Translations under genes and position numbers: made by a program
Notes under the pieces: model-generated
What the model was told of the DNA's origin: nothing
What the model saw: only the letters and a program-made list of their open reading frames with translations
Database searches by the model: none
Part shown: in pieces, positions 37,522-56,195 of the stretch
How positions within the stretch are numbered: the stretch's first letter is position 1
Layout: every line of letters starts with the position of its first letter
Virus record (IMG/VR): IMGVR_UViG_3300025732_000035
Span: 1 to 64,000 of that record
Source of the DNA: a virus
DNA: 64,000 nt
Reading direction: 5' to 3' (one strand)

Positions 37522-37995
37522 TCATTGCTCTTGATTACGTCCAGCAAAAGCCTTCATCTCATCAGCAAGTAACGCAATAACGCGCCCATCCATCTTTCTT
37601 GTCTTCATTAAACGCTGCAGAACAATCAAGCTTGCATCCGTCACGCCATCTTCTTTCTTGATCTGCTTCGTATCAAACGGCAGGAAATCTTCCGGCTTCA
37701 CCTTACTCTTTCTTCCCGCCATCATTCCTGCTGCCATTGTGCCAAGCTTGGCTACGGCAACGCTGCTGACATTGTATTTTGCGATGTCATGACGATCAAG
37801 ATATTTCAGCGCACTCTTAACGTCATCAAGCCTCTGGAGGCCAAAATTCTTGGCACTCCATCGCTCGTCCTTAAAGTCGGAAGCTGAGAGCCTGAAATAG
37901 ATTTCGTTCCAATCTGTCAGGCTCTTAAGCTGCTTTCTGGCTTGTGCTTCAAGCCTTTCTGCTACTGAGGACCATTCCTCTTCGCTGCTTTTTTT
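37522..37995 (-). CDS. tail assembly chaperone frameshift extension (gpT part of gpGT)
   Basis: -1 frame open from slippery A_AAA_AAA (37995-37989) to stop 37522: KKSSEEEWSSVAERLEAQARKQLKSLTDW...PEDFLPFD. Confidence 0.85.
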   Translation of the reverse strand, partial: KKSSEEEWSSVAERLEAQARKQLKSLTDWNEIYFRLSASDFKDERWSAKNFGLQRLDDVKSALKYLDRHDIAKYNVSSVAVAKLGTMAAGMMAGRKSKVKPEDFLPFDTKQIKKEDGVTDASLIVLQRLMKTRKMDGRVIALLADEMKAFAGRNQEQ

Positions 37996-44132: not shown

Positions 44133-44417
44133 ATGATGTTTCTCAAGAAGAGCGGCGCCGATGTGCTTAAAATGCCCCATCAGCAAGCTCGCCTACTCAT
44201 TGCTTCTCGCATTAAAGAAGCCCGCCTTAACAGCGGGCTTTCACAGAAGAATGTAGCAGAAGCTTTACATACAAGTCAGAGTTCTTATTCTCGAATGGAA
44301 CGCGCTGAACTGGCTCCTGACTGCGTGCAAATTCGCACTCTCAGCGGTCTCTATGGAATAAGCGTACTGTGGCTGATGGGCTACCCATCGTTCATTCTCA
44401 ATACGAAGCGCGATTAA
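44133..44417 (+). CDS. XRE-family HTH regulator
   Basis: RIKEAR..GLSQKNVAEAL..SQSSYSRMER..SVLWLMG. Confidence 0.9.
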   Translation: MMFLKKSGADVLKMPHQQARLLIASRIKEARLNSGLSQKNVAEALHTSQSSYSRMERAELAPDCVQIRTLSGLYGISVLWLMGYPSFILNTKRD

Positions 44418-44728
44418 TCTTCGTCCTCATCGTCGTCGTCGCGAATATCACGAAGCTGGTCTTCAATGCCTTCCATGATGTACGATTTTGCCATTGCCTC
44501 AATTTCAAACGTTAAAAACTTAGTTGGCTCAAAATGAGGATCAGGCTTTTCGTAAACGCTCATTACATAGATGTGAGTTTCGTCTAGCCGACCATTTTTA
44601 AAGCATTGCTTCTCAACTAGCTCCCAGCGTGAAGTATTGCGATGCTCGTTAGAAGAAAGAATAGACAACGCCTGCAAAAGACCAATACCTTCATCCTCTT
44701 GTTCGATGACGCGCACGTATTCGCTCAT
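44414..44728 (-). CDS. hypothetical acidic protein
   Basis: 104-aa ORF coupled to upstream gene. Confidence 0.6.
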   Translation of the reverse strand: MSEYVRVIEQEDEGIGLLQALSILSSNEHRNTSRWELVEKQCFKNGRLDETHIYVMSVYEKPDPHFEPTKFLTFEIEAMAKSYIMEGIEDQLRDIRDDDDEDED

Positions 44729-45090
44729 TGATCTTTGTTTCGACTTTCCAGCATTTTAATGATGCGTCGAGCCCAAGACTCTCCCGCATCGCCGCCCCAT
44801 AAATCCCAGCTAATTTTTCCTGCATCATCTTCTCCACCGCTTTTATTCTTTCGATGGCGAGAGAAGAAAGCTGCCATACGCTTGATAGTGGCATAACTAA
44901 CTTTTTCTCCGTTGGCCAAGCTTGTAGCCCTAGCCACTCCACTGCCAATACCCTGCTTCCCCGCCTCCTGCGTCGTTAAACCGCCTTTGCCGTGTTTCCT
45001 GCGCAGCTCCAAGCCACGACGGGCAGCGCTCCTTACGGCAGGAGGAGGGGAGAAGCTTTCAGCGTCTCCCCTCAGCGCTTTTTTCCGCAA
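44725..45090 (-). CDS. basic head-region protein, probably translated as a -1 frameshift extension of 45072..45335
   Basis: AARRGLELRR..TIKRMAAFFSRH..WDLWGG; no N-terminal ATG; entered through A_AAA_AAG. Confidence 0.7.
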   Translation of the reverse strand: MRKKALRGDAESFSPPPAVRSAARRGLELRRKHGKGGLTTQEAGKQGIGSGVARATSLANGEKVSYATIKRMAAFFSRHRKNKSGGEDDAGKISWDLWGGDAGESWARRIIKMLESRNKDQ

Positions 45091-45335
45091 CTCCCATCCA
45101 TTTCCCCTTCTTCTTCCTGTTCCTCTTCTTCTCCGGCTAGCTCCTTAAAGAAGCCCATGTAATACTCATCGCTCATATCTTTTTTCGGTTTGCGTGACAT
45201 ACCAGCTTCGGACAGGGCAATTGCCAGCGCCTGCTTCGGGCTCTTAACTGGTTCACCACTGCTGCTCTTAAGCTTGCCACCCTTAAATTCGCGCATTACC
45301 TTGGCAATTTTTGCCTGCTTTTCTTTCTTGGTCAT
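45072..45335 (-). CDS. DUF6496-like small basic/acidic protein
   Basis: KVMREFKGGKLKSSSG..VKSPKQALAIALSEA. Confidence 0.8.
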   Translation of the reverse strand: MTKKEKQAKIAKVMREFKGGKLKSSSGEPVKSPKQALAIALSEAGMSRKPKKDMSDEYYMGFFKELAGEEEEQEEEGEMDGSCGKKR

Positions 45336-45361
45336 GGTCTAAATGCTTTTCTTAAGCATAA

Positions 45362-46078
45362 TCAATGGATGAATCCTATAGGAGCAGTGGCGATGTTCAT
45401 GTCAGGAAAAAGTTTGTCACGATACAAAACCATGCCAGTAATGAGACGTTCAGCAATAAAAGCTAACGCTCGCTTGTCATAGCCTCCAATGCGAAGAAAC
45501 TGCTTTTCATGTTTGTGCCAAATAGGAGCTAGAGCTACAAACAATGTGCTCATAAATTGCTTGTACTGAACATTACTTCCTCTGGCCATATTGCAGCCAA
45601 TAAAGCTGTTCTGTTTCCAAATGGCATCAATTTCTTCCCTTGAAAAAATCCAGCTTCCCGAATCTGCAATTTCCCTGGTGATAGCAGGAGCATCAAAAGC
45701 AGAATGTCCACCATAGAACTGCTGCTCTAGCGTGCAACTAAACAATGCAGGCTCCGGGAAATACAACGTATTTTTGTCGTACCATTGATCATTTGGCTCT
45801 AACCAATTGCGTCTGTATTGTGCATTGCCGATGTTCTTTTCATTCGCATTGAGAATCATCCAAGAAATGCAAGACAGCTCTCCCCATCGACTATTGCGAG
45901 TGGAAAGAGAAGCATTCTCATCATCAAATACATAACCTTCCCCACGGAGCGTTTCACGCTCCTCACTAGACAAAGCATATGCTCCTCCCATGATGGGAAC
46001 AATACGAGAGCGAGCTTCATACCTCACCTTCTCACCAGGAATACACACGGCATAAATGGTGCAATCAGACGGTTGCAT
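45362..46078 (-). CDS. DUF4422-like putative glycosyltransferase
   Basis: N..WGELS..W, IGNAQYRR, CNM, RALAFIAERL. Confidence 0.7.
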   Translation of the reverse strand: MQPSDCTIYAVCIPGEKVRYEARSRIVPIMGGAYALSSEERETLRGEGYVFDDENASLSTRNSRWGELSCISWMILNANEKNIGNAQYRRNWLEPNDQWYDKNTLYFPEPALFSCTLEQQFYGGHSAFDAPAITREIADSGSWIFSREEIDAIWKQNSFIGCNMARGSNVQYKQFMSTLFVALAPIWHKHEKQFLRIGGYDKRALAFIAERLITGMVLYRDKLFPDMNIATAPIGFIH

Positions 46079-56121: not shown

Positions 56122-56195
56122 GCCCTCGTAGCCCAATCGGAAGAGGTATTCGGTTTAAGCCCGAAGGAGTGTCAGTTCAAATCTGACCGAGGGTA
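56122..56195 (+). tRNA. tRNA-Leu(UAA) with short variable loop, CCA not encoded
   Basis: GCCCTCG/CGAGGGT acceptor stem; TTCGG-TTTAAGC-CCGAA anticodon arm; GTCAG-TTCAAAT-CTGAC T arm. Confidence 0.85.

Follow-up and report, generated by a model that had tools for sequence, protein, structure and literature searches.

A gene for a DUF6496 protein in a freshwater cyanobacterial virus very probably ends in a programmed −1 ribosomal frameshift site, at which an A_AAA_AAG junction joins it to an open reading frame (ORF) in the −1 frame. The pair lies in the head-gene region of the genome. It had originally been predicted that a −1 frameshift at this junction would give an 87-aa protein together with a fusion of about 200 aa; comparison with relatives supports this, and the predicted trans-frame product computes to 203 aa. 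The slippery heptamer, the hairpin 3′ of it, the lack of an independent start for the second frame and the equivalence of the joined product to natural fusions were each borne out when related sequences were compared.

Layout of the junction

The window analysed here is a stretch of 64,000 nucleotides from a 73,130-base viral record that is rated complete. Near-identical sequence is present in freshwater/lake metagenome runs from at least nine studies. Positions 44400–45400 are spanned by contigs from three DNA runs belonging to three studies (one run is perhaps the source sample of the window), with 1–3 substitutions and no gaps. Since contigs from three studies agree without a gap, the frame layout is not an assembly indel. 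The features of the junction and its surroundings are as follows.

45335..45072, minus strand: ORF1, in the 0 frame; encodes the 87-aa DUF6496 protein and ends TGC GGA AAA AAG CGC TGA
45095..45091, minus strand: Shine-Dalgarno (SD)-like GGGAG, which directly adjoins the TTG and is separated by 6 nt from the heptamer on its 3′ side
45090..44725, minus strand: −1 frame ORF, listed at 121 aa; TTG 45090 is its sole start
45084..45078, minus strand: slippery heptamer A_AAA_AAG, read in the phase of ORF1 as GG[A AAA AAG]
From 45078 downstream, minus strand: the part of the −1 frame ORF that would form the C-terminal part of the predicted trans-frame product; it encodes a helical domain (~110 aa) that matches nothing in Pfam
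45074..45072, minus strand: 0-frame stop TGA, one codon 3′ of the heptamer; its G and A contribute the two outermost stem pairs
45073..45045, minus strand: 3′ hairpin whose 9-bp outer stem is set off by single-nt bulges, one per side, from an inner stem of 3 bp that is capped by a 3-nt loop
45073..45065 and 45053..45045, minus strand: the two stem arms, starting 4 nt after the heptamer
44414..44728, minus strand: downstream ORF of 104 aa, starting at an ATG that shares bases with the −1 frame stop (ATGA); corresponds to gp020 of phage S-CBS4; no Pfam family

The heptamer, the 0-frame stop, the 9-bp stem and the −1 frame ORF all lie, to the base, where the original prediction had placed them, and we confirmed that TTG 45090 is the only start of the ORF 45090..44725. 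RNA folding of a 55-nt piece returned the expected 9-bp stem with its 3-bp inner helix at −24 kcal/mol (z −3.5), and none of 200 shuffled sequences was as stable. The heptamer by itself is not above chance: AAAAAAG is present in 23 copies in the window, as compared with 29.6 expected, and hence its significance derives only from its frame, its position and its conservation.

Read along the minus strand, the gene order is a glycosyltransferase island (the gene next to the pair encodes DUF4422), the frameshift pair, the 104-aa ORF, a gene for an XRE-type HTH protein on the opposite strand, and a DUF2213 prohead protease. The product of the 104-aa ORF (44414-44728), a neighbour that is conserved in S-CBS4, has an acidic C-terminus. 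The XRE-type gene (44133-44417, plus strand; HTH_3, E 2.8e-09) sits within the head module and is flanked by the frameshift operon and the DUF2213 protease; its S-CBS4 counterpart, gp021, is annotated as 'transcriptional repressor' and has the same arrangement. The only tRNA gene in the window is for tRNA-Leu (anticodon UAA; 56122-56195, plus strand); there is none for tRNA-Lys, and so the slippery Lys codons must be decoded by host tRNAs. The tRNA-Lys set of the host would thereby determine how slippery A_AAG is.

The frameshift pair does not occupy the position of the tail assembly chaperone genes G/GT, but is in the head module, near the DUF2213 protease. The window has its own tail-chaperone pair at 38495-37520, upstream of the tape-measure gene. 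In that pair, which is of the canonical tail-chaperone type, we noted an in-phase A_AAA_AAA (37989-37995, minus strand) near the end of a 177-aa ORF (38495-37962); the −1 frame past this tail-chaperone-type site is open for 157 codons, to about 37525, and ends just before the 1921-aa tape-measure gene (37488-31723, minus strand).

The junction in the cultured relative S-CBS4

Synechococcus siphovirus S-CBS4 is the sole cultured relative at the DNA level, and is 70% identical over the stretch, with the same gene order around the frameshift pair. Its gp018 ends AGA AAA AAG GGC TAA, with an identical heptamer in the same phase. The S-CBS4 peptide in the −1 frame can be aligned with that of the window right from the heptamer, that is, upstream of the GTG that GenBank gives as the start of gp019; the same codon is GTA in the window. 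The two stems differ by a compensatory change from A-U to C-G. Folded alone, the S-CBS4 hairpin is not better than shuffled sequences (z −1.32, 22/200). GenBank annotates gp018 and gp019 as separate genes. The homologues of the pair are labelled plainly 'hypothetical protein', and one neighbour 'virion structural protein'; this difference in labels is weak evidence against an abundant virion component.

Slipperiness is conserved at split loci

We scanned viral contigs twice, using as queries the −1 frame protein and a natural fusion, and took the best 80 from each of the resulting sets of 329 and 342 relatives. With S-CBS4 and the window this gave 162 records, of which 160 were classified (L146 and L151 were left out). 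At least 18 contigs are present in both scans, and the number of distinct 132-nt junctions is 102 (75 split, 27 fused); the loci are related and include duplicate contigs, such that the counts and p-values given below overstate independence. The split layout, with the second domain in the −1 frame, is found at 110 of the 160 loci, and the remaining 50 are natural in-frame fusions.

An in-phase X_XXY_YYZ heptamer is present at all 110 split loci, 60 nt before a conserved ARRG anchor. Its form is A_AAA_AAG at 91 loci, G_GGA_AAG at 18 and C_CCA_AAG at one, and the 0-frame stop follows exactly one codon past the heptamer at 103 of the 110. The conservation that had been proposed as a check on the prediction thus holds for the slippery signal, by way of three interchangeable heptamers. 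The tails of the upstream proteins vary, with at least 39 different strings of the last ten residues before the heptamer among the 110 split loci. These tails differ widely, and what the junction conserves is slipperiness, not peptide. The second frame is intact at all 110 split loci, and its protein is 81–93% identical across the 80 loci that were the best of 329. At one split locus (L048:2995-3063) the 0-frame stop is replaced by the sense codon CGA, making the unshifted product 42 nt longer; a TGA in the −1 frame lies immediately 5′ of the heptamer there and leaves no room for an upstream start.

An SD-like GGGAG just upstream of the heptamer had been named as part of the signal. The motif is indeed present in the window (45095..45091), but it is not a conserved stimulator: an SD-like 4-mer lies within 20 nt at 70 of 110 split loci (43 of 75 distinct junctions), and no such box precedes the heptamer in S-CBS4. 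The tripartite arrangement of the dnaX type, with a conserved SD about 10 nt 5′ of the heptamer, is therefore not what we found, and the GGGAG of the window is only 6 nt away. Of the features that define a −1 frameshift site, we did find a heptamer in phase with the 0 frame and a −1 frame ORF that overlaps the site with no conserved start of its own.

The hairpin is retained where the frames are split

A 3′ structure at a short, fixed distance from the heptamer, a further defining feature of −1 frameshift sites, is likewise present. When 55 distinct split junctions are aligned without gaps, the GGGG of the 5′ arm is invariant (55/55), even though one of these G residues is a synonymous third position of an Arg codon. 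Standard pairs occupy 90.3% of the 660 pair cells in this alignment, versus 54–64% when the partner is slid by 1–3 columns. One stem pair, 24-40, covaries (AU in 24 junctions, CG in 13, UG in 8, GU in 1, unpaired in 9). None of 500 shuffles, which ignore the relatedness of the loci, reached the observed score for pairing or for covariation.

On average, 8.44 of the 9 pairs can form in split junctions, whose median fold energy is −17.1 kcal/mol, as against 6.44 of 9 pairs and −7.7 kcal/mol for fused junctions (Mann-Whitney p 3.8e-12, with related loci and hence overstated independence). The fused relatives encode the same R-G-D-A-E-S-F-S-P-P peptide using other Arg and Gly codons. Moreover, R-D-D, which is incompatible with the GGGG arm, is found in 18 of 71 fused protein clusters versus 0 of the 44 split clusters in which the motif is present. 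Fused junctions thus encode the same peptide with a degraded stem, and the stem is under selection only where the shift is required. The spacing is a point on the other side. The optimal spacer between heptamer and hairpin is 5–8 nt; the 4–5 nt spacer of the window site is at the short end of this optimum and counts against a frameshift.

Natural fusions and the two domains

In a large protein database we identified 567 relatives of 66–212 aa. The best 120 of these relatives comprise 71 clusters in which DUF6496 and the second domain are fused in a single ORF, and 49 of the split type with assorted starts assigned by gene callers. Natural in-frame fusions, for which the original prediction had suggested looking among relatives, are therefore found both at 50 of the 160 loci and in 71 of the best 120 protein clusters. 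In most fusions the acidic tail is joined straight to the R-G/D-D motif and no heptamer is present. Two clusters, P0055 and P0035, retain the Lys-Lys junction in frame and have exactly the predicted trans-frame sequence, and a third fusion, P0121, is joined at an earlier A-run; each of these three may be either a genuine variant or the product of a homopolymer error. Natural in-frame equivalents such as P0055 lend indirect support to the making of a trans-frame protein. Tails resembling that of S-CBS4 have two A-runs separated by a few codons, as seen in P0121 and at one locus (L058:2998-3066). The junction of P0121 fits a shift at the first A-run, which may mean that there is a second slip site, or that P0121 is a true indel variant or stems from a homopolymer error. 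A tree of fused and split forms (99 columns, four starred branches) has 20 state changes at its best, at least two of them forced by well-supported branches, and is too weak to give their frequency or direction.

ORF1 matches DUF6496 (PF20106) at 34.9 bits (cut-off 24; E 2e-08), and its Atlas neighbours are DUF6496 clusters. Its isoelectric point is 10.35 over residues 1-55, a basic N-terminal domain, and 4.11 over residues 56-87, an acidic tail; the C-terminal domain of the predicted product is also basic. The −1 frame protein matches phrog_2859, of unknown function, over residues 14-115 (E 1e-17; profile positions 164-265 of 740), and the C-terminal module (44725-45060) matched no Pfam-A family at E ≤1. 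An Atlas lead to DUF6321 for this module (0.87) received no backing from the Pfam search and was set aside. An AlphaFold model of P0055 (40-row alignment, mean pLDDT 74) has two helical domains, at residues 1-68 and 90-200 (pLDDT 80–91). In this model the slip site falls within the linker between the two predicted domains (residues 68-89, pLDDT <50), and the linker between the DUF6496 and C-terminal domains is predicted to be disordered and acidic. Both domains had been proposed to be basic and DNA-binding. The first property is confirmed by the isoelectric points, but the second gained no significant fold match: a PDB sequence search with the domains gave no matches at E ≤10, Foldseek against the PDB gave nothing at E ≤0.001 (best 0.8), and the hits of a wide VIA-align 2 structure search, all at Z ≤5, were generic helical bundles.

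The C-terminal domain is not confined to this gene family. A HMMER pass detected it in 3646 cluster representatives at E ≤0.001 and in 1450 at E ≤1e-10. Among the 150 matches listed, it occupies N-terminal, internal or C-terminal positions in proteins of 85–1547 aa. In other phages it is fused to portals, prohead proteases and large multi-domain proteins. Its partners include Phage_portal, PF06381, XkdF and Mu-I proteases, a capsid domain, InPase and 2′-5′ RNA ligase, and further ChaB, DUF5824, LPD1, SNF2-type helicase modules and ADP-ribosyltransferase. Predicted viral structures agree on this spread, with 50 matches at E ≤0.001. Limnohabitans phage DC31 and Vibrio phages have the domain inside larger single ORFs that lack DUF6496, and are uninformative on the frameshift. 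We take the repertoire of partners to be that of 'polyvalent' or head-packaged phage proteins, and the domain looks like a very common phage head-associated domain without a Pfam match.

Alternative explanations

We considered whether the two frames might instead encode separate proteins, with the second translated from TTG 45090, from a downstream GTG or by termination-reinitiation, and with the heptamer being no more than an accident of Lys-Lys coding. The window has its TTG, GenBank starts S-CBS4 gp019 at a GTG, and some GTG or TTG is found in the −1 frame at 67 of 110 split loci, where separate initiation may occur; however, no start is conserved. The TTG of the window is shared by 20 of the 110 split loci and the GTG of S-CBS4 by 34, no split locus has an ATG in the −1 frame ahead of the domain, and 43 (32 of 75 distinct junctions) lack even a GTG or TTG. 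In addition, the GGGAG abuts the TTG of the window with zero spacing. The start-codon counts and the abutting SD-like box together make independent initiation unlikely, including initiation at TTG 45090, which had been singled out beforehand as the outcome that would overturn the prediction. Nor would separate proteins account for the replacement heptamers, which code for Gly-Lys or Pro-Lys, such that slipperiness is kept rather than Lys-Lys, or for the retention of the hairpin in split loci only; and the fused relatives show that the joined protein is the functional unit. We therefore regard separate translation as very improbable.

An equally improbable alternative is transcriptional slippage, whereby RNA polymerase would add an extra A in the A-run and so place a share of the mRNAs in frame. 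Most loci do have a run of six A (seven in L048 and eight in L039), and the in-frame Lys-Lys versions in P0055, P0035 and P0121 are the outcome that insertion of an A would produce. Efficient slippage by bacterial RNA polymerase, however, needs runs of about 8–9; the 19 of 110 split loci with G_GGA_AAG or C_CCA_AAG have no long homopolymer and could not be served by it; and a conserved 3′ hairpin at the spacing of ribosomal frameshift sites is not required for slippage by the polymerase, which leaves the hairpin unexplained. Transcriptional slippage may contribute where the run is 7–8 A. Still less likely, to the point that we give it hardly any weight, is a broken gene or sequencing artefact, in which a fused ancestor was disrupted by a 1-nt indel and the second half is decaying. 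That fused forms are the majority of database clusters (71 of the best 120) would fit such a history, but the break is always on a slippery heptamer, three studies yielded contigs with one and the same layout, and the second frame is so highly conserved (81–93% identity over 80 loci; intact at 110 of 110 split loci) that pseudogenisation is excluded. A programmed −1 ribosomal frameshift is hence the reading that we adopt.

Proposed mechanism and role

In a programmed frameshift of this kind, ribosomes translating the DUF6496 gene would be stalled on A_AAA_AAG, its AAA codon occupying the P site and its AAG codon the A site, by the G+C-rich hairpin 4–5 nt downstream. Part of the ribosomes would then slip back by one base. 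Those that do not slip would terminate one codon further on and release the 87-aa DUF6496 protein, whereas those that slip would go on in the −1 frame to make the 203-aa protein, consisting of the DUF6496 domain, the disordered acidic linker and the helical domain of ~110 aa. We infer that the slippage is ribosomal, and likewise how efficient it is and what the two products do; the high efficiency and the fixed ratio of products in the original prediction are suppositions, and that the products are head-interior or packaged accessory proteins is a guess.

One speculative, and on balance doubtful, extension is that the frameshift serves as a valve, open to evolutionary change, that sets the dosage of an accessory protein packaged in the head. 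The lineage would switch repeatedly between a fusion and a state in which most of the product is short DUF6496 protein and a set minority is the long form. The short form would be an assembly partner, as in G/GT, and the C-terminal domain would serve in targeting to the capsid interior or be associated with DNA ends.

The site adds a well-supported case of recoding to phage biology outside the tail-chaperone class. It also corrects annotation, in that S-CBS4 gp018/gp019 and hundreds of metagenomic cyanophage contigs have the second gene called from an arbitrary GTG or TTG. Close relatives that encode the same peptide with or without a shift constitute a natural experiment, in which selection acting on the RNA hairpin can be told apart from that acting on the protein. 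Finally, the analysis flags a very common domain, associated with phage head proteins, that is without a Pfam match.

Comparison with known systems

Our literature search found no published description of a frameshift in DUF6496 or S-CBS4 gp018-gp019 genes, the original S-CBS4 genome paper being outside its scope. The mechanism is textbook, and the gene family and position are undescribed as far as the search reaches. The tail assembly chaperone frameshift class is discussed in a section of PMC10885494, according to which 2397 of 2476 joined phage frameshift genes in the training data are tail chaperones.

The site in the window shares its elements with several established systems and differs from each of them. 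In E. coli dnaX (tau/gamma), the same A_AAA_AAG, with Lys AAG in the A site, is followed a few nucleotides downstream by a stable 3′ hairpin, and an SD about 10 nt upstream is an integral stimulator. The dnaX shift leads to early termination, and hence to a shorter shifted product; in the window, by contrast, the shifted product would be the longer one, conservation of the SD-like box is lacking, and the spacer is 4–5 nt. The layout of the product is like that of orfA-orfAB in the IS3 family of insertion sequences (e.g. IS911), which yields a short product and a trans-frame fusion, often using A_AAA_AAG, with a nearby 0-frame stop and a 3′ structure. The likeness extends to the short ORF, the fusion, the close stop and the 3′ structure, but IS3 elements encode an unrelated protein, a transposase, whereas the window site is in a gene for a phage head-region accessory protein that has unshifted fusions in close relatives.

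Among phage genes, the tail assembly chaperone frameshift of phage lambda (G/GT) uses G_GGA_AAG, the heptamer seen here at 18 of 110 split loci, and likewise produces a short and a C-terminally extended protein from a morphogenesis pair. Unlike G/GT, the pair in the window is part of the head module (glycosylation island to prohead protease), encodes unrelated proteins, and has a conserved hairpin with its heptamer. Frameshifting by −1 also occurs in capsid genes: it is known from T7 gene 10A/10B and reportedly also, in work cited by PMC10885494, from the major head protein of Lactobacillus phage A2. As in these capsid genes, a −1 shift near the 3′ end of a head-region gene would here place a C-terminal domain on a fraction of the molecules; the shifted gene, however, is not that of the major capsid protein, and what is added is a domain in its own right that has been shuffled widely.
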